This document shows, one piece after another, positions 2,995-27,388 of a DNA stretch of 28,061 bases. The DNA is taken from IMG/VR virus record IMGVR_UViG_3300036956_000151; one strand, given 5' to 3'. Positions within the stretch are counted from its first letter, which is position 1. Each line of letters opens with the position of its first letter. Origin of the DNA: a virus (taxonomy: Duplodnaviria; Heunggongvirae; Uroviricota; Caudoviricetes). The notes beneath the pieces were generated by a model, which saw only the letters and a list, made by a program, of their open reading frames with translations, was not told where the DNA came from and searched no databases. The position numbers and the translations under genes were made by a program.

Positions 2995-3016
2995 AAAAAC
3001 CCGGCGCTTGGCCGGG
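2995..3016 (-). terminator. Rho-independent terminator for the minus-strand gene 3054-3371 (CCCGGC-N5-GCCGGG followed by T5 on the minus strand)
   Basis: Hairpin plus A5 on the plus strand, about 40 bp past the stop codon. Confidence 0.5.
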
Positions 3017-3053
3017 TCTGTCCGTAGTGGGTACTAAACTTCAGGCGACATCT

Positions 3054-3371
3054 CTACCCCTCGGGGGAGCCAAAGTTGCGCAAAACCACACGGGCTAGGC
3101 TGCTGGTGCTGCAAAAACGGTCCTCGATGGCTGACATGACCGAGATGTTCAAGTCCTCGATTCTTGCCGACAGCCCGCGAAGCAATAGGGACTCGTCAAA
3201 GTTCTCCGATGTAAACGTTTCGCGCAGCATTCGGCACAGCCTGTCGATTTCCCAGGTTGCTTCCAGTGCTATGTCTCGGCGAGCCATGGACATAACTATA
3301 TCGTCGCCCTCTTCGCGGAGGTCTTGGTTGGTTCCGGTTTGGGGAAGGCTATCTAGTGTCGTTGCTTGCAT
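3054..3371 (-). CDS. Hypothetical acidic protein, 105 aa (MQATTLDSLPQTGTNQDLREEGDD...)
   Basis: ATG preceded by AAGGAG at 7 nt; terminator downstream; the plus-strand ORF over the same DNA is Ser-rich antisense-like. Confidence 0.5.
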   Translation of the reverse strand: MQATTLDSLPQTGTNQDLREEGDDIVMSMARRDIALEATWEIDRLCRMLRETFTSENFDESLLLRGLSARIEDLNISVMSAIEDRFCSTSSLARVVLRNFGSPEG

Positions 3372-3580
3372 GGTGGCTGCTCCTTGTGTGCGGTGATGTT
3401 CTCCGCAACCCCTTCCTACGGGGGCGGCGGAACCGTGCGGGGCTAGGAATACCGGACACAAGGAACCGGCCAGCCTCGCGGCTGCCCCACACGGCCCGCC
3501 ATTGAACAGGCGTCGCCATGCTTACCGACGTAAAAAAACCGCTTGCGCGGCCCTGTCGGCCTTGTGATTTCCGGGTTCCT
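3372..3580 (-). promoter_or_regulatory. Conserved ~200-bp structured non-coding leader (module 1), homologous to 15029-15235 in element B; possible promoter/5'-UTR or small RNA
   Basis: Alignable by eye with element B (shared GTTCTCCGC, GAACCGTGC, CCATGCTTACCGACGTAAAAAAACCGC-type blocks); conserved stems with compensatory changes; ends in SD plus ATG. Confidence 0.4.
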
Positions 3581-3760
3581 ACGCCCGCCCCTCTGTTTCG
3601 GGGGAAACTGAATCATGGGGCAGGCCGCTCGTTTCAGTCAATATAAAAATGATAATGAAATAGATTGGCTTGCCATAAATTTCGCTTGTACCATCGGCAT
3701 ACGACCACGGGCGTCTCGCAAGATGCAGACTGGCGCTCGCTCAAGACACAAGAGGCCCAC

Positions 3761-4735: not shown

Positions 4736-4768
4736 GCAGCGCAAGCGACGCCCGACCCCAAAGCGGCT

Positions 4769-4796
4769 ACGCGTGAAAGTGGCGTCTTTCACGCGT
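4769..4796. repeat. Palindromic hairpin repeat ACGCGTGAAAG-N6-CTTTCACGCGT; second copy at 5429-5456
   Basis: 11-bp perfect stems; two direct copies ~660 bp apart bracketing the repeat-rich block. Confidence 0.6.
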
Positions 4797-4907
4797 AACG
4801 ACGGGGCCAAGGGGAGGCCTCGTAGTCGGCTGGGTTGGCGATGAGCGGGGGAGAAGCAGGCTTGGTTTCCAGGGTCGGTTTCCAGCAGAACAGACCTTTT
4901 TCGCCTC

Positions 4908-4977
4908 CTGAAACCTGAACATCTTTCAGCATTCGCCGTCATGCCGTGCGCTTTTCTGTGCGCGTTGCCGGCTGCAT
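4908..4977. repeat. ~65-bp direct repeat (TGAACATCTTTCAGCAT...GTGCGCTTT...TTGCCGG), second copy 5148-5217; iteron-like
   Basis: Two copies ~240 bp apart read directly. Confidence 0.55.
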
Positions 4978-5260
4978 TACATCGAGGACCGGGCCAGCCA
5001 TGCGGTCGATGGCCACCTTGTGTTGTTCTTCAGGATTCAGGATTCAGCCGGGCCGGCACAGTGCTAGCACCGGGCTTGCCCGGTACTGGGGCTGCTTCGC
5101 ACTGCGGCCTGACGTGAAGACGCCCTCCCGCCCGGTCGTTTTGCTTCGTGAAAAGTGAACATCTTTCAGCATCGCATCGGGATGCTGTGCGCTTTCGCGT
5201 GCGGATTGCCGGAATCGGGGCAGGGCCAGTGCCGTCCATCTTCTGGACGCCATCGGTAGC

Positions 5261-5308: not shown

Positions 5309-5428
5309 CGCACCGAGCTGCGTACCACTGCCCTGCGTACCCGACTGCCGACGAAGGCCACGCCGCCAGCAGCGGCCACCAGTTCCAGAAAAGCGGCCTA
5401 CTCGCCAGCGTAGAGCTAGTAGCGGCCA

Positions 5429-5456
5429 CGCGTAAAAGTCGCGCCTTTCACGCGTG
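5429..5456. repeat. Second copy of the palindromic hairpin repeat (ACGCGTAAAAG-N6-CTTTCACGCGT)
   Basis: See 4769-4796. Confidence 0.6.
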
Positions 5457-5471
5457 ACGACGCGTGCGAGG

Positions 5472-5499
5472 GGAAGGAAGGAAGGAAGGAAGGAAGGAA
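5472..5499. repeat. (GGAA)7 tetranucleotide microsatellite
   Basis: Seven perfect GGAA units. Confidence 0.9.
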
Positions 5500-8862: not shown

Positions 8863-9456
8863 TTACCCGCCATTTCCAAGATGCTGATTTTTAAGGGTCT
8901 TTAGGCTGTTTAGAAATTTGCGCTCTTCGCTACCCCCCTCGGTTCTAAGTCCGTGCTCGTCAGTGAATACAACATACCCCGCGTCGCGCTGCACGACTCC
9001 ACGGCTCTCCAGTTTGTCCAGCATATCCGATGCAGTCAGGAGTCTGTTCTTGTCCCATATGGCCTTTGCCTCTAGTCGCCAGCGGATAGTAGCGGGCCGT
9101 CCTCCTTTGCGTACGACACGCTTCTGCGACGCGGACCTAGCCTGCTGTGCTCTTGCTGCTGCGGCGTAATGCTGCATCATCGGAGACAAGGGACCGACAG
9201 CAAGAATGGCAGACCTTGCAGCCGCAACGGACGCGGCGTGCGCAGCATCAACCATTGGCTGCATCCACTGACGCGTTTTTTCAGGCCACGTCTCCCTTAG
9301 AAGTCCAAGAGGCGGCTCCTGCAAAGGTAGGGTCAGCGAGCTTCTCAGCACCGACTCGAACACGGCGAGCTGGATTTCCTCGGCCCCGCGCCTGAAGTCA
9401 GCCGCGAATGATGCGGACTGACCTCCCATCCCCTGTTTTTTCAAATGCTTTGTCAT
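8863..9456 (-). CDS. Hypothetical protein, 197 aa; contains a GGRPA motif shared with the syntenic 252-aa protein of element B
   Basis: AAGGAG SD 6 nt upstream; directly preceded by conserved hairpin module 2. Confidence 0.6.
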   Translation of the reverse strand: MTKHLKKQGMGGQSASFAADFRRGAEEIQLAVFESVLRSSLTLPLQEPPLGLLRETWPEKTRQWMQPMVDAAHAASVAAARSAILAVGPLSPMMQHYAAAARAQQARSASQKRVVRKGGRPATIRWRLEAKAIWDKNRLLTASDMLDKLESRGVVQRDAGYVVFTDEHGLRTEGGSEERKFLNSLKTLKNQHLGNGG

Positions 9457-9477
9457 CGCGCTCCTTCAAGCGCCTTC

Positions 9478-9552
9478 AAAAGAGGCACCGCGCCAGGCGG
9501 GTGAAGGTTCCCGCTTTTCGGTTGGCCGACCTAGGCGCGGTGGTGGTACTCG
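9478..9552. terminator. Conserved nested-hairpin element (module 2): outer stem CACCGCGCC/GGCGCGGTG enclosing inner hairpin GCGGG-N8-CCCGC plus T4; terminator-like in both orientations; homologous copy at 25028-25104
   Basis: Near-identical flanks in both elements; inner stem differs by compensatory changes (GCGGG/CCCGC versus CGGGG/CCCCG). Confidence 0.45.
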
Positions 9553-9553
9553 G

Positions 9554-9934
9554 TCAGGCGGCAATCGCCTCATTCAAGGGACACGGCTGAATCAGCACGT
9601 CAGCCGGGAGGCCGAGGCCAGAAGACAGGCGGCGAATCATCGTCACCGACAGCGGGCGCGTCCGGTTCATGATGTCGGCCACCCTCCCCCGCGGGCCGAT
9701 GTAAGGCTCCAAGTCCTTGCGCGTCAATCCGCGGGACTCCATGACGTACTCAAGGAAGGCCACCGGGTCCGGGGCTTTAATCAGGAAGTGCGCCTTTTCG
9801 TAGGCTTCCACCAGCATGGCGAGCACCTCCAGGCGGTCGGCCTCGGGGCTTCCATCAGGGGCATCCCACAGGCGTTCGATATCGGCCAGGGCTTCGTTGT
9901 GCTCGGCTTCGGTTCGGATGGGCTTCAGTTCCAT
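9554..9934 (-). CDS. higA: HigA-family antitoxin (HTH), 126 aa
   Basis: Immediately downstream of the HigB-type toxin gene; AGGAG SD; C-terminal HTH-like segment LTRKDLEPYIGPRGRVADIMNRTRPLSVTMIRRL. Confidence 0.8.
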   Translation of the reverse strand: MELKPIRTEAEHNEALADIERLWDAPDGSPEADRLEVLAMLVEAYEKAHFLIKAPDPVAFLEYVMESRGLTRKDLEPYIGPRGRVADIMNRTRPLSVTMIRRLSSGLGLPADVLIQPCPLNEAIAA

Positions 9935-9942
9935 GGCGGCTC

Positions 9943-10236
9943 CTAGATGGTTTCAGCGTCTATCCGGTCGTACTCGGCATGAGTGCCCACGAAACGGATG
10001 AACATCATGGTGGAGGTGTAACGCACAGCCGCCACCAACCGGTAGTCATTGCCCTTGATGTTGAACACCACGCGGTTGTTCGCCAGAAAGCTGGCGTTCC
10101 GGTGCGCGGCCTTGATGTCGGCCGGGGTTTGCCAGGTGGCCCGGCTTGCCTCGGCGTACCAACCACGCAAAGGGGTTTCGGCTTGCGGATGCTTCTCCCA
10201 AAACTCGCGCAGTGCTCGCAGTGCAATGATGTGCAT
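9943..10236 (-). CDS. higB: HigB-family type II toxin (mRNA interferase), 97 aa
   Basis: MHIIALRALREFWEKHP...NNRVVFNIKGNDYRLVAAVRY...IRFVGTHAEYDRIDAETI; toxin-first order. Confidence 0.85.
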   Translation of the reverse strand: MHIIALRALREFWEKHPQAETPLRGWYAEASRATWQTPADIKAAHRNASFLANNRVVFNIKGNDYRLVAAVRYTSTMMFIRFVGTHAEYDRIDAETI

Positions 10237-10615: not shown

Positions 10616-10894
10616 TCAGTGGTAATCCAGATAGTCCAGCAGTTCCACGTTTCCGCCATCGAAGCGGAACACAAGCCGCCAGTTGGCTTGCACCGTCATG
10701 GCGAGGAAGCCGGCGCGGTCGCCGGACAGGCCATGCAGGCGCCAGGACGGGCGGGCGAGGTCTTCCGGGCCGGCGGCGGCGTTCAGGGCGGTCAGCATTT
10801 CCCGTAGGCGCTTGGCGTGAATCGGCTGAATGCCGGCCTGCTTGCCGGTCAGGAAGAAGGCTTCAAGCCCCTTGTGTCGGAACGATAGAATCAT
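10616..10894 (-). CDS. RelE/ParE-superfamily toxin of the HigB killer-protein type, 92 aa
   Basis: MILSFRHKGLEAFFLTGKQAGIQPIHAKRLREMLTALNAA...LLDYLDYH. Confidence 0.85.
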   Translation of the reverse strand: MILSFRHKGLEAFFLTGKQAGIQPIHAKRLREMLTALNAAAGPEDLARPSWRLHGLSGDRAGFLAMTVQANWRLVFRFDGGNVELLDYLDYH

Positions 10895-10925: not shown

Positions 10926-12242
10926 TCAGGTCACAACCCGCAACCCAGGCGCCTGCCCCTCGTCCGGCTGCTCGATGCCGGCCTGCTCCAGAATCCAGCC
11001 CTCTATCTTGATGTGCCACAGGGTCAGCAGGTCGAGCGGCCGGCGGCGATAGTGCTTCTCGGCCAAGGCGCTGGGCTTGTGCCCCTGAATCTGCGCCACC
11101 ACGCCGACGGGCACCTCGCACCACTCCGCCAGGGTGCCGAAGGAGCGGCGCAGGTCATGCAGCGAGAATGGCGGCAGGCCGGCGGCTTCCATCGCTTTGC
11201 GCAGGGGTTTGAGGACTTCCACGATACGGCCATCCGCGGCCGCAGGGCTTGAGAACACCCACTCATTCCGGCGCGGCAGAGAGGCCAGCAGCGAGGCGAC
11301 GAAGGGCGTCAGCGGGATGATGCGGCCCTCTTCCTCCACCTTGTCGGCGATGTGCAGGGACTTCCATTGAAAATCCACGTCAGCCCATTTCAGGCCGGCC
11401 AGTTCCTCGCGCCTCGCGCCGGTCAGGAGCAAGGTTTGCAGGTAGGCGGCGTGCACCGGGTTCCCCAGCTTGCGGACATGCTCGAACCACAGCGGCAATT
11501 GTTCGCGGCGCAGGCTGTCGCCTTTGGTCTTCACCGCCTGCACTTGGTCCCGCACTTCGCTGGTGCGGCAGGCATCCGCACGAACGAGGCCGGCATACTC
11601 CGGGCGCTCGGCACACCAGCCAAGGAAGGCGCGCACGAGGCGGAATATCTTTGCGGCCTGCGTCGCCCCGCGGGCGTTGTTGTCCTGCATCCATGCCGTG
11701 ATGCGTGCCGGGGTCAGGTCCAATAGGCGCACATGCAGCAGCGGATGTACCATGCCGGGCAAAGTGTATTCCCCCTGCCCAGCCTTGCGCCCTCGCGTGA
11801 TGCGCTCGCCGCCGGGCTTTATGGCCTGTGCATGGTCGCGCTGTGAGGACTCGCCCCACTTGTGCGAGCGGGCCAGAACATAGGCGGCCCATGCCTCGCC
11901 AACGGTCACTTCCTGCCGTGCGGACTCTTCCCGCTTGGCCTCGATGGCGGCGCGCTTGTCGGCCTTCTCTTGGCGCGGGTCGATGCCTTGGTCAATCAGG
12001 GTTTGCAGGCGGCGGGCTTCGGCGCGGGCTGCGTCAATGCCCCACGCGCGCACGTCGCCAATCGTGATGCGAAGAGCCTTGCCGTTCAGGCGGCTTTGGA
12101 AGATGAACCCGCGCGCCTCGCTGCCGGGTGTGGCACGCACTGCGAGGCCGGGCGCTTCCGTGTCCCACAGGAAGGCTTGAGCGGTGCCGGTCGGGCATTC
12201 AAATTCGCGGATGCGGCCGGCGGTCAGCTTGTTGCGTGCCAT
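10926..12242 (-). CDS. int: Tyrosine recombinase, P4-type integrase (element A); ATG at 12242 preferred over the ORF-track start at 12248
   Basis: ~438 aa; catalytic-domain blocks LTGARREELAGL, HDLRRSFGT, HKPSALAEKHYRRR; GGAGAA SD; adjacent to att copy 2. Confidence 0.9.
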   Translation of the reverse strand: MARNKLTAGRIREFECPTGTAQAFLWDTEAPGLAVRATPGSEARGFIFQSRLNGKALRITIGDVRAWGIDAARAEARRLQTLIDQGIDPRQEKADKRAAIEAKREESARQEVTVGEAWAAYVLARSHKWGESSQRDHAQAIKPGGERITRGRKAGQGEYTLPGMVHPLLHVRLLDLTPARITAWMQDNNARGATQAAKIFRLVRAFLGWCAERPEYAGLVRADACRTSEVRDQVQAVKTKGDSLRREQLPLWFEHVRKLGNPVHAAYLQTLLLTGARREELAGLKWADVDFQWKSLHIADKVEEEGRIIPLTPFVASLLASLPRRNEWVFSSPAAADGRIVEVLKPLRKAMEAAGLPPFSLHDLRRSFGTLAEWCEVPVGVVAQIQGHKPSALAEKHYRRRPLDLLTLWHIKIEGWILEQAGIEQPDEGQAPGLRVVT

Positions 12243-12256
12243 GTTCAAGTTCTCCG

Positions 12257-12287
12257 TGTAAGCGGCTCATGTAAGCAGCTTGTAAGC
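12257..12287. promoter_or_regulatory. Three TGTAAGC heptamers (12257, 12270, 12281) upstream of the element A integrase; candidate arm-type sites
   Basis: Direct repeats read from sequence; same heptamer at the left end (2037-2055). Confidence 0.4.
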
Positions 12288-12406
12288 GGATTCTAGAACA
12301 CGCTTCAATTTCCATCAACGTCAAAAACGGAATGAATGCTTTATTTTCAATGCCTTGCTGTTTTTATGAAACGCTATTCAATGTCAAAAAACCCCGTAAC
12401 CATTCA

Positions 12407-12502
12407 ACTCATAATCGCTTGGTCGCTGGTTCAAGTCCAGCACGGCCCACCATACGTATCAAGCACTTAGGCCAGCCTCACGAGGGCTGGCCTTTTGCTT
12501 TC
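12407..12502 (+). repeat. att direct repeat copy 2 (junction between element A and element B); tRNA 3' half only, no 5' half
   Basis: ACTCATAATCGCTTGGTCGCTGGTTCAAGTCCAGCACGGCCCACCA plus terminator; preceded by unrelated AT-rich sequence. Confidence 0.85.
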
Positions 12503-12510
12503 CGGCGCCG

Positions 12511-12529
12511 TGTAGCCACCATGTAGCCA
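12511..12529. promoter_or_regulatory. Two TGTAGCCA octamers at left end of element B; candidate arm-type sites
   Basis: Same motif at 27389-27425 (three copies, one inverted) upstream of the element B integrase. Confidence 0.4.
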
Positions 12530-12582
12530 GATTCGAGAAGTCCGCACAACCACATACAAAAGGCCCCATGCTGGAAGCCGGT

Positions 12583-12691
12583 GGAGGGAGCTATCGGCCT
12601 CCCCTCCTCCGCCGTGAGTGCGTGATGGCTCCGTTTTGAGCCATCGTCAGCAACGGCCGAAAGTAAAGGGTGGGCAGATTGTGCCCACCCT
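12583..12691. other. Three consecutive GC-rich hairpins (12583-12607, 12624-12646, 12665-12691) between att copy 2 and the Rha-like fragment
   Basis: Inverted repeats GGAGGGAG/CTCCCCTCC, GATGGCTC/GAGCCATC, AAGGGTGGGCA/TGCCCACCCTT. Confidence 0.3.
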
Positions 12692-12698
12692 TGGCGGG

Positions 12699-12830
12699 TC
12701 AGCAGCTCATGGGCTTCTCCTCAATTTGAGGAGAAGCAATCACGCCGCGCTCAAGCAAGGTTTCGATGGTGCGCTTCACGTTGTCGTGACGCTTCGGCCT
12801 GGTGCCGGCATGGGCGACTGATGCGAACAT
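12699..12830 (-). pseudogene. Decayed Rha-like N-terminal fragment, 43 codons; lacks the usual N-terminal helix
   Basis: Translation ...RPKRHDNVKRTIETLLERGVIASPQIEEK matches the element A ORF at 2657-2803; below the 60-aa ORF-track cutoff. Confidence 0.35.
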
Positions 12831-12847
12831 TGCTCGGGTCAGAACGA

Positions 12848-12872
12848 AGGGTGTCGCTATTCCCGACACCCT
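12848..12872. promoter_or_regulatory. Palindrome AGGGTGTCG-N7-CGACACCCT just upstream of the Rha-like fragment
   Basis: Shares GGTGTC/GACACC half-sites with the palindromes at 2597-2618 and 15443-15466. Confidence 0.35.
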
Positions 12873-13071
12873 TTAAAACCTGGTGAACGTGGGGCCTCGT
12901 TCGCAGAACGACACGCCCGGCCGCCGAGGGCCTGCGTACTGTGCAGTCCCTCTCCGGGTCAGAACTTGGGCCTCGTTCGCAGAAACGGCACCTGATGCGA
13001 ATGAACTACTTCATAGCCCGCAAACCCCGCGTGCCCTAGGATGAAGGCTCCTTTTCTTTCCTGATAGATCT

Positions 13072-13260
13072 ATGGGTCCGATCTCCAAACCGTCCAGAAT
13101 CAGCCAATGGCGCGCCACCACTGCCGCCGGCGAAACCGAAGTCTTCAACCTCAAAATAATCGCCGACGACTGGGCGGGCGTCGGTGGCACGGTCGAAGCC
13201 GTGAATGCTGCCGACCAGAAGGCATTGCAAGGGGGTGGCAAAACACCACCCCATGAATGA
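13072..13260 (+). CDS. Possible small protein, 62 aa, unknown
   Basis: GC-rich third codon positions and non-repetitive composition; no clear SD. Confidence 0.25.
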   Translation: MGPISKPSRISQWRATTAAGETEVFNLKIIADDWAGVGGTVEAVNAADQKALQGGGKTPPHE

Positions 13261-13298
13261 GAACCCCGGCGCGTGACGGGGGCTGGTGGTGAGTCGCG

Positions 13299-13589
13299 TT
13301 ACTGGGTCCGTGCGTGGCCGCTGGGTGGCGGCAGAATGTCCGACAGGGGCAAACCCTGCGCCCAGGCGTGCAACTCGGTAAGAAGCCAGCCTATCCGGTT
13401 GCTCGACGTCTTGCGGGGCGCTGGGAACGTTCCCTTCAGCACCTGTGCGGCGATGTTCGACGGGCTGAGTCCCACAATCGTGCAGGTGGTGTCCCGGTCC
13501 ACGATGACAGGATCGATGTGAATCACCCTGGTGACCCGCAGCGTTCCGCCGCTGGGCGTGCACGCGGGGATCTTCTTCGGCCGTCCCAT
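13299..13589 (-). CDS. alpA: AlpA-family phage transcriptional regulator, 96 aa
   Basis: GLSPSNIAAQVLKGTFPAPRKTSSNRIGWLLTELHAWAQ fits the AlpA pattern; start coupled to upstream stop. Confidence 0.75.
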   Translation of the reverse strand: MGRPKKIPACTPSGGTLRVTRVIHIDPVIVDRDTTCTIVGLSPSNIAAQVLKGTFPAPRKTSSNRIGWLLTELHAWAQGLPLSDILPPPSGHARTQ

Positions 13590-13590
13590 T

Positions 13591-14058
13591 TCAGGTGCTC
13601 CCGGGTGCGTGGGCGGTCGCCTGGCGGCCACCAACGGCACGCAGTTCGTCGGAGAGGCTTAAGGCCTCCCGGGCGAGCGCCTGAAAGTCTGCCTGTGCTG
13701 GGGCCGACCCCGCAAGAAACTGATTGATCCTCCGCATGAGCGAATCTTGGCGCTGCTGGAGGTCCGCCAGGCCGGCAAGGATCACGTCCGCAAGGGGTGG
13801 GAGTTCTGCGCGATTCTCCCAGTCGTCAGCACGGCCGAGGAGGTAATCAGCTGAAACACCATAGACCCGCGCCGCATCGGCAAGCAGCTGGGGCGTGATT
13901 CCCTTTGGGTAGTTCGGATGCTCGGCGCGGGTCAAACGGGATGCACTCTTGATGCCAAGCCGCCGCGCGGCCTCGTCCGTGCCCAGGCATGCGATCTCGC
14001 GGGCGGATTTCAAGCGCTGGCCGACGATGCACTGCGCTACGGGTGGTCTCTTGCTCAT
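13591..14058 (-). CDS. XRE/Cro-CI-type HTH regulator, 155 aa
   Basis: HTH-like segment and motif ARVYGVSADYLLGRADD; paralogous to 20619-21212; AAGGA SD. Confidence 0.7.
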   Translation of the reverse strand: MSKRPPVAQCIVGQRLKSAREIACLGTDEAARRLGIKSASRLTRAEHPNYPKGITPQLLADAARVYGVSADYLLGRADDWENRAELPPLADVILAGLADLQQRQDSLMRRINQFLAGSAPAQADFQALAREALSLSDELRAVGGRQATAHAPGST

Positions 14059-14093
14059 GGTGGTGTCCTTCTCAATTCCAGCGTTTCAGGGGG

Positions 14094-14119
14094 CTGTGCG
14101 CCCGGTTGAAGGCGCACAG
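14094..14119. promoter_or_regulatory. Inverted repeat CTGTGCGCC-N8-GGCGCACAG between the 173-aa gene and the XRE regulator; hairpin or operator
   Basis: 9-bp perfect stems. Confidence 0.35.
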
Positions 14120-14135
14120 ATCCATCCCGCGGGTG

Positions 14136-14657
14136 TCAGGCGGCGTCGCGGCGATAGTTGCTGCCCACGTCTTCCGCTGTGCCGTTGACGAGATCCTGCA
14201 CGGTGCTGGCCATGTCGTGGATCGTCAGCAGGGTGCTATCGAGGTGCGGGCGCAGCGACTCAAGCTGGCCAGAGCCCGCGGCGGCCTTGGTGACCGCGGC
14301 AACGCCCGCGATCTTTCTTGCAGCCTCTTGAACGTAGAGATCCATCAGGTTAGCCGCGGTCTGCAGCTCACGAACCTTGGTCGGGGCGTTGCGGGAGGGG
14401 CAGAAGGCGTAGTCCGTGTCCTGGCAACCTACCACCGTGGCCTGTGCCTTGATATCTGCAGCGGAATCGCGAGCAAGGCCGATGATCGCGTCCATCGCGG
14501 TGCCAGTGCCGGCCGCATCGTCAGACTTAAGGGCGCCTTGTGCCGTGCGCACGAGGCCCATGATTGCGTCGGTGGCCTGTTGCGAATGGCGGTCAATCAG
14601 CTCGACGGTCTTCATCAGGGTGGCGAGGTTGGTGTTCTTGATGGTGGTGGTGGTCAT
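14136..14657 (-). CDS. Hypothetical protein, 173 aa, mostly helical
   Basis: GGAG SD; start 2 nt after upstream stop. Confidence 0.6.
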   Translation of the reverse strand: MTTTTIKNTNLATLMKTVELIDRHSQQATDAIMGLVRTAQGALKSDDAAGTGTAMDAIIGLARDSAADIKAQATVVGCQDTDYAFCPSRNAPTKVRELQTAANLMDLYVQEAARKIAGVAAVTKAAAGSGQLESLRPHLDSTLLTIHDMASTVQDLVNGTAEDVGSNYRRDAA

Positions 14658-14659
14658 GG

Positions 14660-15028
14660 TCAGGCGCTCCAGGCAAAGGAAAGACGATAGGCTGCTACGG
14701 GACCGGCAAGCCGGCGGATGGTGCGGTACATCGAGAGGGACGTGGCGAGGCGAGCGCGGCCGGGACGGCGCGCGGTGCGATCAGCGGCGGCGAGGGCCTG
14801 CTGTGCGGCCTCGAGCAGAGGGGCCGGCAGGAAGCTGTCAGCGCTGGTCGGACGCACGGGCGGGTAATCCATCGTCTCGGTGACGATGGCGCGCAGGGCG
14901 GACACGGGTGACGGTGCAGCAGGACGGGCACGGCCGATGCGGCGATGCGGGCCGCGAACAAGGGCGGGGCTGTGTTTGGGGCGTGAGGTGCTGCAGAGTG
15001 CGGGCGCACTGGGGGCGTGGGTAGCCAT
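14660..15028 (-). CDS. Possible protein, 122 aa, Pro/Ala/Arg-rich; start at the position homologous to the element A gene 3054-3371
   Basis: AAGGAA SD; low-complexity composition makes coding status uncertain. Confidence 0.35.
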   Translation of the reverse strand: MATHAPSAPALCSTSRPKHSPALVRGPHRRIGRARPAAPSPVSALRAIVTETMDYPPVRPTSADSFLPAPLLEAAQQALAAADRTARRPGRARLATSLSMYRTIRRLAGPVAAYRLSFAWSA

Positions 15029-15235
15029 GGTGATGTTCCTTATTTGCGGTCTTGTTCTCCGCTACCCAGCCGCCAAGCTGGGTGAGCAGAACCGTGCAGG
15101 TTGGCGGACCGGAATAAGGACCGGCAGGGTTTCCCCTCCCGCACGGCCCCGCCCAATGAGGCGATACCATGCTACGGACGTAAAAAAACCGCGCAGTGCG
15201 GCGGTTGTCCGCCTTATTTACCCGGGCCGCCAAGC
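15029..15235 (-). promoter_or_regulatory. Conserved structured leader (module 1), element B copy
   Basis: Homologous to 3372-3580; includes hairpin CCGC-N5-GCGG followed by A7 (terminator-like on the minus strand). Confidence 0.4.
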
Positions 15236-15442
15236 CCGTATCACCGTTGTTTGCAGCGACGAAAATATGATGCGCCTGGGCGCCGCTGGTGGTCAAGCAC
15301 TTATTTTGCATGTGTGGCGCCGGAGGGGAGGTGGACACATGAATCATGGGCGCCCGAGGACGGACACGGTAGGTGTCATTTCGGCCGGCGACACCCGCCT
15401 AAAATGGGTGGCCGCGGTAAGTCGAGCACGTCAGGCCGCCGA

Positions 15443-15466
15443 GGTGTCCTCAGTTTTGAGGACACC
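15443..15466. promoter_or_regulatory. Perfect palindrome GGTGTCCTC-AGTTTT-GAGGACACC; operator-like
   Basis: Homologous to the site upstream of the element A Rha-like ORF, but no Rha-like ORF follows here. Confidence 0.4.
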
Positions 15467-15553
15467 GTCACCAATGTGCAAATCTGCACAATATCCAGAC
15501 CCACGCGGCTGCCCTGGATGAAGCCGTCTGCGTCGCTTCTGAGTTTCATCGGA

Positions 15554-16459
15554 TCAGGCCTTCATGAAGGTGTCGAGCTGGGTGAAGGTCATCTGCAGCT
15601 CTGCCAAGGCGTCTTCGCGCCGGGACAAACTGAGCTCGAGGTTAGCCGGTCGAAAATTGCCGATATCCTCATAACCGCCGCGGTTGCTGCCCTTGGTCAC
15701 AAAGGCGTGCACGATCTTGATCCGCACCGCGTAATTTCCGGGAACTCCGACGGTGCCATCCTCGGCCGAGACGGCGGCTTGGTGATCGCGAAACCAGCGC
15801 TTGAGCGTGCCCACCTTGTCGTCGGTCGCCGTCATGCGCAGTTCCATCGGATCGCTTCCGGTGACTGCATCCAGCGTAGCCCCCCCGACCTTCCGTTTCT
15901 CGCCGGTGAGCGTGAAAGGCGCGTAATCCAGATCGGTCACGAACATATTGAAGGGCTGCGAGCTGTCACCCGAAAGTGCGCTTGACACCTCGATCAGGAA
16001 CAGATTCTTTCGGGCCCGCGCGGTGTTTATCGACTCCTCGAAGATCGTCCGGGCCTCAGTAGGGCTCAGGCCTCCGAAAAGGGGCGTAGGACGTCCCCAG
16101 TAGGTAGCCTGGGAAGACACCCCGCCCATACCCGGTATCAGCTTGTCCAGCGCCCCGGAATCGAGCAGGCGCATGCCGGCGCTGTTCCAGTCTCCGGCCA
16201 TCAGGTCGCCGGCAATCCGGCTTGCGGCATCGATCCGGCCGCGGAGCTTCATCGGGATGGCTTTGTTCACCTGCGCCATGGCGGCATTCTTCGCCATGCC
16301 AACACCAATATTGGCGACAGTGTTTGCCAGGATGCCACCGCCAAGCGCACCCGCCGCGCTCTTGGCTACGCTTCCCAGGGCGGAATCCAGGCTGGAAGAA
16401 ATTCCGCCCATCAAGCCCTTGGATGCGAGTGTCTTGCTCACGCCGTTATAGAGGGACAT
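15554..16459 (-). CDS. Hypothetical protein, 301 aa; N-terminal ~70 aa Gly/Ala/Ser-rich with glycine-zipper-like spacing, then a globular domain
   Basis: MSLYNGVSKTLASKGLMGGISSSLDSALGSVAKSAAGALGGGILANTVANIGVGMAKNAAMAQV...; start 5 nt after upstream stop. Confidence 0.65.
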   Translation of the reverse strand: MSLYNGVSKTLASKGLMGGISSSLDSALGSVAKSAAGALGGGILANTVANIGVGMAKNAAMAQVNKAIPMKLRGRIDAASRIAGDLMAGDWNSAGMRLLDSGALDKLIPGMGGVSSQATYWGRPTPLFGGLSPTEARTIFEESINTARARKNLFLIEVSSALSGDSSQPFNMFVTDLDYAPFTLTGEKRKVGGATLDAVTGSDPMELRMTATDDKVGTLKRWFRDHQAAVSAEDGTVGVPGNYAVRIKIVHAFVTKGSNRGGYEDIGNFRPANLELSLSRREDALAELQMTFTQLDTFMKA

Positions 16460-17918: not shown

Positions 17919-18608
17919 TCATGGGGCGTCGTTCCAGCGTTTGTTGACCTGCACTACGACCGGGTAGCCGGACGGGTCAGAGGCATCGCCGGGCGTTCCC
18001 TGCCCGTCGTTCGGGTCTGTGTCGGCCGGGCCATCGTAGAGCGGGATTGAAGCCTTCAGCGTGAGATCAATGACCAGCATCGTCAGGTTCTTCGCGTCGG
18101 TTGGAATGGAACTGGCTGGCACATCGGGCGACTCCACCTGCACCGGCCATTCCGTCGCTACACCGGCATGCGTGAAGGTCGCAGGGAAGCGCCGGCCGTG
18201 CACCGTGTCCAGGTACAGAAGGAACTGAGAGGCTATCGAACTGGCCGTGCCGGTGTCGTGCGCAAAGATGGCGATCTGTGCCCGAATGTCACCGGCCGCC
18301 ACCCGCAGCCCGAAAAGCCGTTCTTTCGCATCGCCCGGGATCATTACCGGGATGCTGTCGGCGAGCTGGCGCGTGAAGTCCCGGCCGGTGGGCATGTAGT
18401 CCTTGGCCATGGCAACCAGAATTACCGGCATCTCCGGCGGCATCGTAGTTGCGCTGTCGGTGTCGTTCTTCTGCCAGGCTGCAAGCATCTCCTCCACGGC
18501 ATCAATCATGCATGCGGGAGCCCAAAGAACTGATTTCTTGAGCCCCCGCGTGGTGAATTTCTGCAGGGCTGGCGTGGTGGGGACCAAAGAGGCGTAAAAC
18601 GAGCCCAT
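17919..18608 (-). CDS. Hypothetical protein, 229 aa; internal ATG with GGGGGA SD preferred over the ORF-track start at 18644
   Basis: Divergent from the KilA-N gene; no recognisable motif. Confidence 0.55.
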   Translation of the reverse strand: MGSFYASLVPTTPALQKFTTRGLKKSVLWAPACMIDAVEEMLAAWQKNDTDSATTMPPEMPVILVAMAKDYMPTGRDFTRQLADSIPVMIPGDAKERLFGLRVAAGDIRAQIAIFAHDTGTASSIASQFLLYLDTVHGRRFPATFTHAGVATEWPVQVESPDVPASSIPTDAKNLTMLVIDLTLKASIPLYDGPADTDPNDGQGTPGDASDPSGYPVVVQVNKRWNDAP

Positions 18609-18676
18609 AAATCCCCCAAATCCAATGCGGACAGGTTTGAGCATGGCGCGAAACCGTTGAAAGCGAAGCCTCGAGA

Positions 18677-19534: not shown

Positions 19535-20332
19535 TCAGAGGGATACTGTCTTGAAGTTGGCCCAGATTCCGCGGTCAAGCGCCGTCAGCGTGCAAAGGGT
19601 CATCGGAATCAGCTGCTCTACGAAGCGGCCATTCCGGTCAACCGGTGCATTCAGGGGCTGGCCGATGCTCTCGATCACCAGAGGGAAATAGGTGCAACCC
19701 TTGTACTTCATCGCCAATCGAACCGGCGCGCGAGACGGCATCAGGGCTTCCACGTATGCCATGTCTCCCTTGGCGGTCTTGGCCAGCCTGGCGAGGATTG
19801 AGCCGTCCTTGGAGAGCTCCACCGGTAAAGCCCATTTCATGAGCTTGGCAACTGGCTCCTCGACCTCCTCTACCGGGTCGGCGTAGGCACGGAACACGGC
19901 TACCACCTGAAACTTGACCGGCGCCATGCCGCTGAAAACTTGTGTGCTGTTTAGTAGCGTAACCCCGGTTCGCCCCTCGAATTGCTTCAGAAAATCGCCT
20001 GATTTCTTCTGCGCAGCGGCGCCGTCAACAGACGACCTCGACATACCCAGAAGTACGTTTGCAACGGGCTGCAGGGCACCGGACTGAAGCATCGCCATCA
20101 GGGCCGGGGCCTTTGTTTCAGGCCCGGATTGTTCGAAGGCACTCTGCCAATTCAAGGCCATCTCCATGCTGGCCTCGGTGAGCGGTGCAACCACCGTATC
20201 CGGGTCGGTCTTGTCCGTCCGCTTCCAGACCCCGTTTTCGTTATCGACCTCGAAGAAATGAGCGAGCAGGTGCGGTGAAAGCCCCTTCCAATCCGATTTC
20301 AACTCAGTTGCCGTAAGGCTGGGTGCGGTCAT
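19535..20332 (-). CDS. Hypothetical protein, 265 aa
   Basis: ATGA overlap with the upstream 97-aa gene. Confidence 0.6.
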   Translation of the reverse strand: MTAPSLTATELKSDWKGLSPHLLAHFFEVDNENGVWKRTDKTDPDTVVAPLTEASMEMALNWQSAFEQSGPETKAPALMAMLQSGALQPVANVLLGMSRSSVDGAAAQKKSGDFLKQFEGRTGVTLLNSTQVFSGMAPVKFQVVAVFRAYADPVEEVEEPVAKLMKWALPVELSKDGSILARLAKTAKGDMAYVEALMPSRAPVRLAMKYKGCTYFPLVIESIGQPLNAPVDRNGRFVEQLIPMTLCTLTALDRGIWANFKTVSL

Positions 20333-20622
20333 TCCTCACCGCCCTCGGAATCGGCGCTGGCGGGAGCGATCTGCACGCGGGTGGCGGGTTCGGCGATGGC
20401 CTGGCGAATGCCCTCCAGCGCCACCAGGCAGGCATGCAGCGCGGCGCGCACGGCTTCAGGGGTGTTCGTGCCTGCTTCCAGTGCTCTGGCCTCTGCGGCA
20501 GCAAGGACGGCCTCCGGCGTCGCCCTTGCGACAATGTCACGAAGGGTATCGACGCATGTGGTGGCCAGGGCGTGAGCGATGCCGTCGATTTCACGGGGGA
20601 AATCTGCGTATTTATTAATCAT
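20329..20622 (-). CDS. Hypothetical protein, 97 aa
   Basis: ATGA overlaps at both ends. Confidence 0.5.
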   Translation of the reverse strand: MINKYADFPREIDGIAHALATTCVDTLRDIVARATPEAVLAAAEARALEAGTNTPEAVRAALHACLVALEGIRQAIAEPATRVQIAPASADSEGGEE

Positions 20623-21212
20623 TTTTTCTTCCTCGGCGGGGTCGCCAGTTTGAGACGGAGCCGACGCTCCGCGGCCATGGCGTCGGCTGCTGATTTCTTC
20701 AGGCGGTCGGCGGCGGCGTTGAGGATGGATCCCCCGTGCAGATCGAGGAACGCGTCACCGTTCAGGTCGGTGAGTCGGTTGATCGCATCTATCACGTTTT
20801 GGGCGTCTCGCTGGATCGTTGGGATCACGGAAGTGGCCGCCTCAATTTTCTGTTGCAAGGCAATGATCGCCTGAAGGTCACGCGACCGCATGCGGTCCCA
20901 CTGGTCGAGAAGGTGAGGCGTCATCCCCCGCGGCACCCCGGCCTCAAAGTCGTCCGAAAGGCCGAAAAGGTACTCGGTGGAAACCTCATAAATCCGGGCA
21001 GCATCGCGAATCAGGCGGATCGGGACGGAGTTGGTGTCCGTTGCATTCTCGACTTTTGACAACTTCGACGGATTCGCGTAGCCAAGCCGGCGCGCGGCTT
21101 CGGACAGGGACAGATTGCACAATTCCCGGGACGCCTTCAGGCGCAGGCCGATGGTTTTGACCAATTCCGACTGCACATGTCGGACCGGCGGGGCCTCCTG
21201 GATTACTCGCAT
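20619..21212 (-). CDS. XRE/Cro-CI-type HTH regulator, 197 aa; internal ATG preferred over the ORF-track start
   Basis: LSLSEAARRLGYANPSKLSKVENATDTNSVPIRLIRDAARIYEVSTEYLFGLSDD; AAGGA SD. Confidence 0.7.
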   Translation of the reverse strand: MRVIQEAPPVRHVQSELVKTIGLRLKASRELCNLSLSEAARRLGYANPSKLSKVENATDTNSVPIRLIRDAARIYEVSTEYLFGLSDDFEAGVPRGMTPHLLDQWDRMRSRDLQAIIALQQKIEAATSVIPTIQRDAQNVIDAINRLTDLNGDAFLDLHGGSILNAAADRLKKSAADAMAAERRLRLKLATPPRKKK

Positions 21213-21249
21213 GTATTTATCCTTCCGTGGTTCGGAGGTGACGGCATAA

Positions 21250-21483
21250 TCAGTGCGCCACCTCGTCGGCGTCGTCCCCGTAGAGGTGCGAGCCAAGCTC
21301 CTCCGCCAGAGCCCCGACGAACACGCGAATTTGTTGGTGGAACTCGCCGATGATCGTTTCGGCGACTTGCCGCGCGAGGTTCGGAGCCGCGCCGAAGGTC
21401 TCGACAAACACGCCAGCAAGCGCGTCGACTTCGGCGTCGATGGCCTTTTCGTTGGCGGGGGGCATGGGGAATGTGGTATTCAT
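21250..21483 (-). CDS. Hypothetical acidic protein, 77 aa
   Basis: Internal ATG of the ORF-track entry; weak SD. Confidence 0.4.
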   Translation of the reverse strand: MNTTFPMPPANEKAIDAEVDALAGVFVETFGAAPNLARQVAETIIGEFHQQIRVFVGALAEELGSHLYGDDADEVAH

Positions 21484-25001: not shown

Positions 25002-25027
25002 TCTCGCGCTCCATCTGCGCACCCATC

Positions 25028-25104
25028 GAAAAAGGCACCGCGCCAGCGGGGCGATGGAATCCCCGTTTTCGGTTGGCCGACCTAGGCGCGGTGGTGGTGC
25101 TCGG
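25028..25104. terminator. Conserved nested-hairpin element (module 2), element B copy
   Basis: Outer stem CACCGCGCC/GGCGCGGTG, inner CGGGG-N9-CCCCG plus T4. Confidence 0.45.
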
Positions 25105-25359
25105 TCAGCTACGGTTCCGACGTGCAGCCTCGATGCCGGCCCGCAGTTCTTCGTCCGTGGCCGGGCGGTCGTCCTCGTCCTTACCGTCCCATACAAAGTG
25201 CTTTTCCGGAGAGATATTGCGGACCGCCGTAGCCAGTTCCTTACGCTGCTGTTCAGCCAGGGCAGAGAGCTCGTTGGCCTTCCGAAATGCCGGGTCGCCC
25301 TTGCTGGCTTCCTCGGCATAAGCGCGAGGGTCGAAGGAGCCGGGTTTGTAGTCGCTCAT
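25105..25359 (-). CDS. Hypothetical protein, 84 aa, charged; third gene coupled to the HigBA pair
   Basis: Strong SD GGAGAGGAG; begins about 20 nt after the antitoxin stop. Confidence 0.6.
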   Translation of the reverse strand: MSDYKPGSFDPRAYAEEASKGDPAFRKANELSALAEQQRKELATAVRNISPEKHFVWDGKDEDDRPATDEELRAGIEAARRNRS

Positions 25360-25690: not shown

Positions 25691-25701
25691 GTTCAAATCC
25701 C

Positions 25702-27369: not shown

Positions 27370-27388
27370 GGTGACGGGCTCCGAATTT

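Follow-up and report, generated by a model that had tools for sequence, protein, structure and literature searches.

Introduction

Phages P1 and P7 are heteroimmune through differing a/b sequences. In the P1 record AF234172 the parts of the immI region are annotated in the order promoters, a1, b1, c4, a2, b2, icd and ant1. Profiles of C4 and isrK detect immunity RNAs in Gram-negative PICIs (PMC10111431), and in Gifsy-1 of Salmonella the small upstream orf45 is translationally coupled to the antirepressor gene anrP (PMC4825925).

Here we describe two adjacent genes, ORF122 and ORF173, in element B, one of two islands (A and B) in the window, the whole 28,061-nt stretch of DNA that was analysed. 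We propose, with a probability of about 0.8, that they are the first two cistrons under a C4-gated operon architecture of the P1/P7 immI type. The locus is a new example of a known C4 switch and no new kind of system.

The C4 leader of element B

The conserved leader ahead of ORF122 is no unknown regulatory element: it holds a phage-type immunity RNA that has been described before, the C4 antisense RNA, in a module built like P1 immI. In a covariance-model scan RF01695 (C4 antisense RNA; Rfam clan CL00128, gathering score 45 bits) matched at 48.1 bits over model positions 1-87 of 87. The following parts were mapped.

15335-15341 and 15309-15315: inverted repeat CATGTGT / ACACATG, directly upstream of the promoter
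15267..15296, minus strand: predicted sigma-70 promoter, TTGACC-18-CATCAT (consensus scan)
15182..15260, minus strand: IsrK-like / c4-a1b1-like upstream segment (Rfam scan below gathering score, terminator search)
15227-15233, minus strand: a1, UUGGCGG, in a hairpin loop
15212-15218, minus strand: b1, AAUAAGG
15182-15204, minus strand: intrinsic terminator hairpin and U7, between a1/b1 and C4
15078..15160, minus strand: C4 antisense RNA, about 83 nt (full-length RF01695 match)
15113-15120, minus strand: b' loop of C4, UCCUUAUU
15101-15107, minus strand: a' segment of C4, CCGCCAA
15037..15076, minus strand: C4 target sites a2 and b2 on the mRNA (complementarity)
15070-15076, minus strand: a2, UUGGCGG, in a hairpin loop
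15037-15044, minus strand: b2, AAUAAGGA, holding the ORF122 Shine-Dalgarno sequence and ending 8 nt before the ATG

The promoter is the sole promoter-like site that the consensus scan found within 12400-15600, and its position is common to element B, element A and the related loci L001 and L006. Complementarity is perfect over 8 nt between b' UCCUUAUU and b2 AAUAAGGA, the Shine-Dalgarno sequence included, and over 7 nt between a' CCGCCAA and a2 UUGGCGG. The upstream segment scored 44.6 bits with isrK (RF01394, gathering score 50) and 21.6 bits with c4-a1b1 (RF03163, gathering score 46.7), and in the minimum-free-energy fold a1/b1 are paired in cis with a'/b'. A riboswitch or attenuator as an explanation of the leader was rejected on account of the Rfam C4 match and the a/b co-variation described below. 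Searched against phage records, the leader DNA matched a single entry, and that in part: the beginning of the record of Pseudomonas phage vB_Pae_HB2107-3I, where the genes downstream are unannotated.

The homologous leader of element A

That element A carries a homologous leader driving an unrelated, acidic 105-aa protein was borne out. Self-BLAST of the window aligned 15026-15192 with 3369-3542 (71.5% identity, E 3e-10), a wider alignment of the two leaders gave 75% mean column identity, and RF01695 matched element A at 67.5 bits, again over model positions 1-87 of 87.

3372..3641, minus strand: homologous leader (Rfam C4 match, loop mapping)
3612-3641, minus strand: promoter, TTGACT-18-CATGAT
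3576-3581, minus strand: a1, UAGGAA
3560-3566, minus strand: b1, CACAAGG
3532-3551, minus strand: terminator and U7
3420-3506, minus strand: C4 RNA (67.5 bits)
3456-3464, minus strand: b' of C4, UCCUUGUGU
3444-3449, minus strand: a' of C4, UUCCUA
3413-3418, minus strand: a2
3381-3389, minus strand: b2, ACACAAGGA, Shine-Dalgarno sequence included
3054..3371, minus strand: ORF105, acidic cargo, 105 aa, pI 4.4, monocistronic
2995-3017: intrinsic terminator hairpin and U5 after ORF105

Here the complementarity covers 9 nt for b (UCCUUGUGU with ACACAAGGA) and 6 nt for a; a window-wide scan at gathering thresholds gave no isrK or c4-a1b1 match on this element. No similarity of ORF105 to ORF122 or ORF173, or to any other sequence from the 47 loci fetched, could be detected, and nothing significant was found for it in Pfam, PHROGs, PADLOC or NCBIfam. 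Its C/G of 1.02-1.08 is the lowest among the leaders' genes.

Related leaders and the genes behind them

For a survey of homologous loci, 34 non-redundant leaders were gathered by an exact 22-base leader motif and are therefore a close, phylogenetically non-independent sample. First ORFs were called mechanically, with the call for L023 corrected by hand, and proteins were called Ant-like from the PHROG anti-repressor annotation. RF01695 matched all 32 of 32 complete related leaders at 48-72 bits. In many of these loci isrK matches adjoin the C4 matches, and isrK or c4-a1b1 reaches its gathering score in L009, L010, L013, L014, L023, L027, L030, L031, L034, L035, L039 and L045.

Over the 34 leaders, perfect b':b2 complementarity averages 7.5 nt within a locus versus 3.95 nt between loci, and a':a2 complementarity 7.0 nt versus 4.1 nt, with 27 distinct b loops and 15 distinct a cores in 32 combinations. 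Since C4 loops and targets co-vary, a variable specificity code is written into the leader. Every leader motif is followed, at a distance of 155-170 nt, by an ATG with a Shine-Dalgarno sequence, and in each locus this sequence is overlapped by b2. The leader had been described as fixed; its specificity loops instead differ between loci, and the Shine-Dalgarno region that they pair with changes along with them, so that leader and first cistron form one co-evolving unit.

The catalogue of genes behind these leaders contains no single constant family: the first gene belongs to more than 20 unrelated families, and gene spacings of 2-5 nt or ATGA overlaps recur. The idea of a swappable cargo slot thus holds as far as exchange is concerned, also for gene 2 of element B (see below); the cargo is not arbitrary, however, as about 31 loci include 11 with an antirepressor-type protein (Ant-like, Rha or KilA-N) in slot 1 or 2, as in P1. 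Over the 200 nt that follow the gated ATG the median C/G is 1.65, versus 1.01 further downstream, and it exceeds the downstream value in 27 of 27 leaders (Wilcoxon p 5.6e-6). Such a C-rich start of the first cistron would fit Rho-dependent polarity.

The first cistron

14660..15028, minus strand: ORF122, 122 aa, ATG start, in the position of P1 icd
14136..14657, minus strand: ORF173, 173 aa, ATG start, 2 nt after the ORF122 stop

The 2-nt interval is exact: the TGA of ORF122 is followed by CC and then by the ATG of ORF173, and a Shine-Dalgarno sequence for ORF173 lies within the 3' end of ORF122. Both genes are under purifying selection (dN/dS about 0.2) and are real genes, not artefacts of GC-rich DNA. 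Two plus-strand ORFs (13989-14690 and 14416-14883) were rejected as genes, having lower GC3, and the minus-strand frames are the conserved ones. Neither ORF122 nor ORF173 had a tblastn match in 50,697 phage records.

ORF122 is rich in Pro, Ala and Arg as first reported (12% Pro, 21% Ala and 14% Arg; pI 11.9). Its mRNA contains 46% C and 25.5% G, and the C/G of 1.81 is the highest of 17 window genes compared; the amino acid bias reflects this C-rich, G-poor mRNA. Homologs share 62-93% amino-acid identity, with pairwise dN/dS of 0.14-0.34, most substitutions at third codon positions and indels in frame. The protein has the conserved core LRAIVxETMDYPPVRPTSADSFLPAPL, and its C-terminus carries the motif YRxxRRLAGPxxAYRLSF; a core of 30 residues is almost invariant even between homologs at only 62% identity. 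No significant match was found in Pfam, PHROG, PADLOC or NCBIfam, and the AlphaFold2 model is of low confidence (pLDDT 53.7), too poor for a fold search.

ORF122 might serve solely as a gating and coupling device, as orf45 does in Gifsy-1, so that its translation matters while the protein itself is functionless; we consider this rather unlikely. Short versions of 46-47 aa (L023, L039) retain only the C-terminal motif beside the restart site, the N-terminal 40 residues are predicted to be disordered, the model is of low confidence, and C-rich codons dominate the composition; in Gifsy-1 orf45, moreover, nucleotides are conserved while amino acids vary (PMC4825925). Against a functionless product stand the low dN/dS of ORF122, its near-invariant 30-residue core and the synonymous differences inside the conserved C-terminal motif. 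Its P1 counterpart, Icd, is also annotated in the P1 record as an active cell-division inhibitor.

The second cistron

ORF173 had been called helical, and the prediction agrees: it is modelled as an all-helical four-helix bundle with a mean pLDDT of 76.7. A unit HMM resolved it into a tandem duplication of a helical-hairpin unit of about 80 aa (residues 5-84 and 91-171; consensus ...MD..SQ...KI..IA.LA..AL...IN..AE.VGCNY.D). The duplication was detected by this HMM only, direct BLAST of the N-terminal against the C-terminal half being not significant (E 2.9). Compared with the locus from a Zoogloea oleivorans MAG (L021), dN/dS is 0.16 and 14 of 18 differences fall at third positions.

Searches of Pfam, PHROGs, PADLOC and NCBIfam returned nothing for ORF173, and none of the members of a 30-sequence family alignment had a PHROG match. 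The model matched only generic or designed helical bundles in PDB and BFVD (best E 5.8e-3), and neither sequence nor fold resembled any known antirepressor across these six databases. A word-indexed search with the family profile added few proteins. Units of this family recur at related positions: L045, L018 and L026 have them directly behind isrK and C4, and in L036 the second gene belongs to the family.

The Zoogloea loci L001 and L006 are 83-87% identical to element B over the leader, ORF122 and the 6 codons that open gene 2. Identity returns with the 3 codons that close gene 2 and extends over the two genes behind it, and precisely in place of ORF173 both loci carry a non-alignable 159-aa gene. 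ORF173 behaves as a swappable cassette. The C-terminal 'AA' shared by the gene-2 proteins was discarded as a degradation tag, its codons belonging to the conserved cassette flank.

By its place in the operon, ORF173 fills the effector slot that Ant, Rha or KilA-N antirepressor-type proteins hold in related operons. We tentatively suggest that it may be a specificity-determining, antirepressor-like protein that binds a repressor, either the element's own or a helper phage's. It is more speculative that the unit of about 80 aa, doubled in ORF173 and single elsewhere, constitutes a new class of C4-gated effector, with ORF122 as a conserved partner or cell-directed factor. Single units do occur directly behind C4/IsrK leaders in other satellite-like islands. 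If the class is real, it might act as a new antirepressor or derepress a helper, a function analogous to that of P4 Epsilon; the rapid exchange between ORF173 and the 159-aa gene, with its exact boundaries, would follow the differing repressors or targets of various helper phages, and ORF122 would be more than a mere leader peptide.

Downstream operon and host element

13591..14058, minus strand: third cistron, 155-aa XRE-type helix-turn-helix (HTH) protein, 77 nt downstream of ORF173
13299..13589, minus strand: fourth cistron, 96-aa weakly AlpA-like protein, 1 nt downstream of the HTH gene
13264-13281: weak terminator-like hairpin after the AlpA-like gene
1933-2051, 12407-12525 and 27557-27675: att direct repeats beside tRNA-Met

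The operon thus runs on past the two genes first noted, which the initial annotation had overlooked. The third cistron matches HTH_31 and HTH_19 below cut-off and phrog_7396 at E 3e-8, and is conserved as family F1 in 9 loci (dN/dS 0.38). The fourth matches Phage_AlpA at E 8.5e-4 and 19.6 bits, under the cut-off of 21 (dN/dS 0.14). Further HTH proteins of the element are encoded at 20619-21419 and 25382-25768. Both elements encode integrases, together with a PriCT-2/AAA_25 primase in element A and a replication initiator and DnaB-like helicase in element B. Their sole morphogenesis-like genes are PmgG-like and tail-tube-like, and no capsid or terminase genes were found in either. By gene content they appear to be phage satellite-like islands, P4-like or Gram-negative PICI-like, element B being an integrative island of about 15 kb in a Rhodocyclales-type genome.

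Proposed control of the operon

By analogy with P1, transcription from the promoter (15296 to 15267) would run through the IsrK-like a1/b1 decoy segment with its U7 terminator, C4, a2/b2 and ORF122. Processed C4 RNA would pair through a' and b' with a2 and b2 and block ribosome binding at ORF122; the untranslated ORF122 RNA, exceptionally C-rich and G-poor, would act as a Rho loading zone, and transcription would halt before reaching ORF173 and the HTH and AlpA-like genes. Once C4 is outrun or titrated, for instance by a1/b1 decoy RNA, ORF122 would be translated, ribosomes ending 2 nt before the ORF173 ATG would re-initiate, and the whole operon would be expressed, switching the element from an immune, quiescent state to an active one. 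ORF122 would correspond to P1 icd: a first cistron that gates the operon and at the same time codes for a conserved protein. We infer C4 processing, Rho dependence and translational coupling in element B from the P1 model; the 2-nt spacing, the Shine-Dalgarno sequence in the 3' end of ORF122 and its high C/G are consistent with coupling and Rho polarity. The Rho step cannot be general, since ORF105 is not C-rich and is monocistronic.

Control could alternatively be transcriptional and act at the leader, not translational at ORF122, if the C4-like RNA paired with the upstream, seqA-like a1/b1 as in P4 and forced a stop at the U7 terminator. The a1/b1 copies do stand directly 5' of an intrinsic terminator, with b':b1 and a':a1 complementarity equal to that for a2/b2. 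The elements also look like satellites, with integrase and replication genes and without capsid or terminase, and C4 and isrK profiles are reported to detect relatives of P4 CI and seqA in PICIs (PMC10111431). We judge this version unlikely, however, since pure leader termination needs neither the position of b2 on the Shine-Dalgarno sequence in every locus nor the C-rich first cistron in 27 of 27, whereas P1-type control needs both; moreover, the cis pairing of a1/b1 with a'/b' in the minimum-free-energy fold would sequester C4, not terminate transcription. The two explanations are compatible.

The slot behind the leader could carry accessory 'moron' genes (defence, anti-defence or host-modifying) that benefit the host and stand outside the switch, in line with the great diversity of small unannotated genes behind the leader, the precise exchange of gene 2 as a cassette and the isolated, monocistronic ORF105 with its own terminator. 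This is improbable: genes gated by C4 should be silent in the resident state, whereas a moron is typically expressed constitutively, PADLOC gives no match, the recognisable cargo is of antirepressor type, and ORF173 would share its transcript with an HTH regulator and an AlpA-like gene. Finally, it is most improbable that ORF122 arose by chance as an open frame in GC-rich DNA, with ORF173 the only gene: although its codon position 2 is unusually GC-rich (0.69) and its GC3 (0.74) is not above that of alternative frames, the frame is open in 12 loci with dN/dS well under 1 and a third-position bias, a conserved Shine-Dalgarno sequence and ATG lie exactly at the C4 target, and the odd composition is explained by C-rich mRNA, as in P1 icd.

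With the C4 assignment an unknown conserved leader becomes an annotated regulatory module, and P1-type C4 control is extended to satellite-like islands of Rhodocyclales and Nitrosomonadales, namely of the wastewater genera Zoogloea, Accumulibacter, Thauera and Nitrotoga. The differing a/b codes give a testable model for separate immunity of two tandem islands in one chromosome, and a C-rich first cistron goes with C4 gating across many unrelated first genes. Two uncharacterised protein families are flagged, the ORF122-like proteins and the ORF173 helical unit; placed at an immunity switch, they are good candidates for new antirepressor or helper-manipulation functions.

Comparison with known systems

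Element B resembles Gifsy-1 IsrK-orf45-anrP in its isrK-like upstream segment and in a terminator that allows short and read-through isoforms. Unlike in Gifsy-1, the isrK segment stays under its gathering score (44.6 versus 50) and no Hfq or AntQ component was identified here; the IsrK model is one of trans-activation by a short RNA. With satellite phage P4 and the Gram-negative PICIs with their 'Bro zone' immunity RNAs it shares the type of element, a small island that sits at a tRNA gene and carries an integrase, primase or helicase genes and AlpA; as there, a stable RNA repressor would be cut from the leader of its own operon, and the surrounding gene zone is dynamic and prone to swaps. No Bro-N or Eta homolog overlaps the RNA here, and whereas P4 control is described as premature termination by CI:seqA pairing (seqA/seqC; kil/eta system), the clearest target in element B is the Shine-Dalgarno sequence of the first ORF.

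From P1/P7 immI, element B differs in that neither ORF122 nor ORF173 is detectably similar to Icd or Ant, a 2-nt spacing replaces the ATGA overlap of P1, an intrinsic terminator separates a1/b1 from C4, the operon runs on into an HTH and an AlpA-like gene, no C1-type operator could be recognised here, and the host element is an integrative satellite-like island of about 15 kb, not a plasmid prophage. The likeness to P1/P7 immI lies in part order and spacing as in AF234172, with a small first ORF and the presumed effector gene close behind it; in a leader matching Rfam C4, with b2 on the ribosome-binding site and an a1/b1 duplicate upstream of C4; in a C-rich first ORF (C/G 1.62 for P1 icd versus 1.81 for ORF122, and 1.0 for P1 ant1); and in a specificity that resides in short a/b sequences, different between the co-resident elements A and B.

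Leader identity and organization

The leader of element B, the second of two tandem integrated elements (A and B), is an immunity RNA module of the P1 immI / P4 CI type in satellite-like islands. A full-length C4 antisense RNA (Rfam RF01695) was detected in it (48.1 bits; gathering score 45), and directly upstream lies an isrK / c4-a1b1 match below threshold. The initial annotation had described a leader common to both elements; the stretch from 15029 to about 15300 in element B and its counterpart in element A (3372 to about 3641) are indeed homologous (71.5% identity over 179 nt; E 3e-10), and in A a second C4 copy scores 67.5 bits. In the list below, a1/b1 and a2/b2 are target sites and a' and b' the complementary C4 segments.

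Features of the two leaders and their cistrons
15296 to 15267 (-), B: predicted leader promoter, TTGACC-18-CATCAT
15233 to 15227 (-), B: a1, UUGGCGG presented by a hairpin
15218 to 15212 (-), B: b1, AAUAAGG
15204 to 15182 (-), B: intrinsic terminator with U7
15078-15160 (-), B: C4 RNA, with loop b' UCCUUAUU and segment a' CCGCCAA
15076 to 15070 (-), B: a2, UUGGCGG presented by a hairpin
15044 to 15037 (-), B: b2, AAUAAGGA, the ORF122 Shine-Dalgarno, ending 8 nt before the ATG
14660-15028 (-), B: ORF122, first cistron
14136-14657 (-), B: ORF173, second cistron
3420-3506 (-), A: C4 RNA
3054-3371 (-), A: ORF105

The element A leader follows the same design with other code words (a = UAGGAA, b = ACACAAGGA). 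We put the probability of a C4-gated operon architecture behind the element B leader at about 0.8.

At two related loci, public annotations place genes over the C4 and IsrK RNAs: L006 (8001-8645, a 214-aa over-extended ORF122 homolog) and L045 (2710-2958, an 82-aa ORF on isrK plus C4), so this RNA is routinely mis-annotated as protein-coding.

Related leaders and co-variation of pairing

IMG/VR and one genome per species were scanned with the motif GGTTTTTTTACGTCNGT(N)NGCATGG, common to both copies. Twelve viral contigs and 21 genome contigs carried it, a set that is ascertained by exact motif, phylogenetically clustered and provided with mechanical downstream ORF calls. The genome contigs belong mostly to the Rhodocyclales and Nitrosomonadales, namely Zoogloea, Accumulibacter, Thauera, Dechloromonas, Propionivibrio, Nitrotoga, Ferrigenium, Sulfuricella and Thiobacillus. 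All loci with a complete leader (32/32) gave a C4 match above the gathering score, and many of them also an isrK or c4-a1b1 match above it.

Among 34 non-redundant leaders there are 27 different b' loops and 15 different a' cores. Perfect b':b2 complementarity averaged 7.5 nt within a locus versus 3.95 nt with other loci, and a':a2 complementarity 7.0 nt versus 4.1 nt; the upstream a1/b1 copies behave similarly. Such three-way co-variation provides strong comparative support for the antisense interaction, and it shows the leader to be a scaffold with a variable specificity code rather than a fixed element. Elements A and B, side by side, have different a and different b code words, a pattern that would be expected of two heteroimmune elements; P1 and P7 are heteroimmune and differ in their code words.

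The first cistron

ORF122 and ORF173 lie on the minus strand as originally described, with 'CC' separating the ORF122 TGA from the ORF173 ATG. The gene status of ORF122 looked suspicious from its GC content at codon position 2 (0.69). A cutoff of E <= 0.01 gave 13 cluster-level homologs, those of full length being 62-93% identical. Indels are in frame and leave the reading frame open, dN/dS is 0.14-0.34, third-position changes are two to five times more frequent, and a core, LRAIVxETMDYPPVRPTSADSFLPAPL, is nearly invariant; ORF122 is thus a real gene, and its protein is under selection. No recognised family was found for it in family databases, and its AlphaFold2 model is poor (pLDDT 53.7), with a basic disordered N-terminus followed by three helices.

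The odd amino-acid composition of ORF122 is due to its C-rich, G-poor mRNA (46% C, 25.5% G), with the highest C/G ratio (1.81) of the 17 window genes compared. Median C/G is 1.65 in the first 200 nt past the C4-gated ATG versus 1.01 at 400-700 nt downstream, and the first 200 nt have the higher value in 27/27 non-redundant leaders, whichever protein family follows (Wilcoxon p 5.6e-6). The classical Rho entry signal is untranslated RNA rich in C and poor in G, and in P1 the C4 RNA is held to control ant through a block of icd translation that leads to Rho-dependent termination. On these grounds we infer that ORF122 is a gating cistron and also serves as a rut-like zone.

Short versions of 46-47 aa (in L023, from the second ATG, and in L039) retain only the C-terminal motif YRxxRxxAGPxxAYRLSF. 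L023 is from Zoogloea oleivorans strain Buc (NZ_SDKK01000001.1), with its leader at about 6673-7007(-) of the locus, and its 46-aa first ORF begins MQATTL, as does ORF105, and shares an ATGA overlap with the next gene (164 aa). This mini-version suggests that the first cistron is itself a mosaic.

The second cistron and the variable slot

The initial annotation had proposed a swappable cargo slot behind a fixed regulatory element. Our analysis confirms the observation and bears out part of the interpretation: the cargo varies, and so do the a' and b' sequences of the leader. The element A cargo, the acidic 105-aa ORF105 (pI 4.4), is unrelated to ORF122 and ORF173, and the first genes catalogued behind the 34 leaders fall into more than 20 families. 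Recognisable families occupy slot 1 or 2 at 11 of about 31 loci and are all antirepressor-type: matches to the PHROGs 'anti-repressor' and 'anti-repressor Ant' (family F4), Rha (F11) and KilA-N (F12), usually preceded by a small first ORF of 32-94 aa. These contents point to antirepressor-like effectors.

In the Zoogloea lineage the operon order is an ORF122-like gene, a variable gene, an XRE-type HTH gene and a weakly AlpA-like gene, the AlpA and HTH assignments being below curated cut-offs; dN/dS of all four cistrons (0.14-0.38) shows that they are coding. Element B is 83-87% identical to the related loci L001/L006 from the leader through ORF122 and six initial codons of gene 2, and identity returns at the last three gene 2 codons and runs onward. 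Between these boundaries L001/L006 carry a non-aligning 159-aa gene in place of ORF173. The protein P0018 joins an ORF173-type unit to the C-terminal domain of that 159-aa protein, and the slot is therefore filled by modular relatives. The swappable slot is thus real, sharpest at gene 2 and placed inside a known regulatory logic.

ORF173 (dN/dS 0.16) is predicted to fold as a four-helix bundle (pLDDT 76.7). Word-indexed search returned only two close homologs, and an exhaustive HMM search 30 representatives (E <= 1e-3), which are mostly ~100-aa proteins aligned to residues ~85-172. An HMM of 17 single-unit members has two matches in ORF173, residues 5-84 (E 4.5e-13) and residues 91-171 (E 1e-24), so ORF173 consists of a tandemly duplicated helical-hairpin unit with AE.VGCNY at its end. 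Family members stand first (L018_1, L026_1) or second (L036_2) after the leader, and P0030 of L045 lies directly behind isrK plus C4; its island also carries integrase, capsid, AlpA and DUF927 primase genes. Family and fold databases gave no function for ORF173, and both ORF122 and ORF173 are absent from 50,697 deposited phage genomes. That ORF173 is an antirepressor-like binding protein is a tentative suggestion, somewhat against the odds. Both uncharacterised cargo families merit functional testing.

Genomic context

The 5' end of the window carries an rpoD-like gene and a tRNA-Met gene (1902-1978), followed in tandem by A and B, two different integrative elements at the tRNA-Met 3' end.

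Boundaries of the two elements
1933-2051, 12407-12525, 27557-27675: att repeat, ~119 bp, three copies, 82-95% identical
10926-12248 (-), 26041-27369 (-): tyrosine integrase regions, ~76% nucleotide identity (DNA alignment of A 10956-12510 with B 26071-27660, ~76% identical)

Element A (~10.6 kb) encodes two HigB-type toxins, an AlpA/HTH_17-like protein and a PriCT-2/AAA_25 primase-helicase. Element B (~15 kb) encodes an antitoxin-like HTH protein, a replication initiator, a DnaB-like helicase and PmgG-like, KilA-N and tail-tube-like proteins, with no capsid, terminase or portal gene in its gene content. Both look like phage satellites or PICI-like islands. Their closest relatives are in Zoogloea, and locus L021, from a Z. 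oleivorans MAG, is 89.5% identical across the entire operon.

Three element B proteins are candidate helper-hijacking functions of a satellite: one matching phrog_24337 and a tail-tube PHROG (15554-16459(-)), a phrog_4333 protein (17919-18644(-)) and a PmgG-like head-morphogenesis protein (19535-20332(-)). In element A, two separate HigB/RelE-type toxin genes adjoin the integrase; directly downstream of the first (9943-10236(-)) is a putative HTH antitoxin gene (9554-9934), and no partner was identified for the second (10616-10894(-)). The antitoxin-like HTH gene of element B (25382-25768) occupies the equivalent place. Between the toxin-antitoxin/integrase end of each element and the next gene block lies an int-alpA RNA motif (Rfam RF02996; 9473-9541(-), 71.9 bits; 25023-25092(-), 63 bits), within a stretch of ~100 bp that is conserved in both elements (9456-9557 and 25004-25108, 83%); the motif also occurs in the related loci L010, L020 and L045.

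Each element has one copy of a near-identical 23-nt palindrome, GGTGTCCTCAGTTTTGAGGA(T/C)AC, which lies downstream of the ORF105 operon in A (2596-2618) and between the tail-tube-like gene end (15554) and the leader promoter in B (15443-15465), and could be a shared operator or bidirectional terminator. Near each attL end, in opposite orientations, are short remnants of a Rha-type regulator N-terminus (2657-2803(+), about 12714-12794(-); …EIAELTGKCHGNVKRTIDTL… and …HDNVKRTIETLLERGVI…), forming an 81-nt inverted repeat with 74% complementarity; they look like decayed antirepressor genes. Divergent from the element A leader promoter, a low-GC3 (0.58) gene at 3665-4735(+) encodes a 356-aa CC0125/CC1285-family lipoprotein (NCBIfam E 7e-23; weak N-terminal Cor-like match), a candidate surface or superinfection-exclusion moron. 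Among small ORFs in the low-GC portion of element A are repeated ACGCGTGAAAGTGGCGTCTTTCACGCGT-like palindromic units (4762-4815 / 5421-5474) and 34-nt blocks with ...GAACATCTTTCAGCAT at the end (4899-4932 / 5139-5172).

Proposed mechanism

Sequence and comparison show the C4 identity, the a/b complementarity with its co-variation, the Shine-Dalgarno within b2, the coding status of the four cistrons, the C-rich first cistron and the cassette boundaries. In the scheme we propose, the C4 RNA would be processed out of the transcript and would block ORF122 translation, and Rho would exert polarity over the untranslated ORF122 RNA. When ORF122 is translated, ribosomes may re-initiate at ORF173, and expression of the operon would activate the element by way of its HTH and AlpA-like proteins. 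The a1/b1 RNA may act as a decoy; a1/b1 pair with a'/b' in cis in the minimum-free-energy fold (z-score -3.5).

Comparison with known systems

Dynamic 'Bro zones' with C4/isrK-type immunity RNAs have already been described in Gram-negative PICIs and P4 (PMC10111431), and in Gifsy-1 a small ORF behind IsrK was shown to be coupled to an antirepressor (PMC4825925). Our comparison record was the annotated P1 genome (AF234172). Its order is promoters P2c4/P1c4, a1, b1, c4 (77 nt), a2, b2, icd and ant1, with ant1 overlapping the icd stop, and the element B leader matches it part for part in that order. ORF122 holds the position of icd, whose C/G of 1.62 against 1.0 in ant1 repeats the pattern of the C-rich first cistrons behind the leaders.
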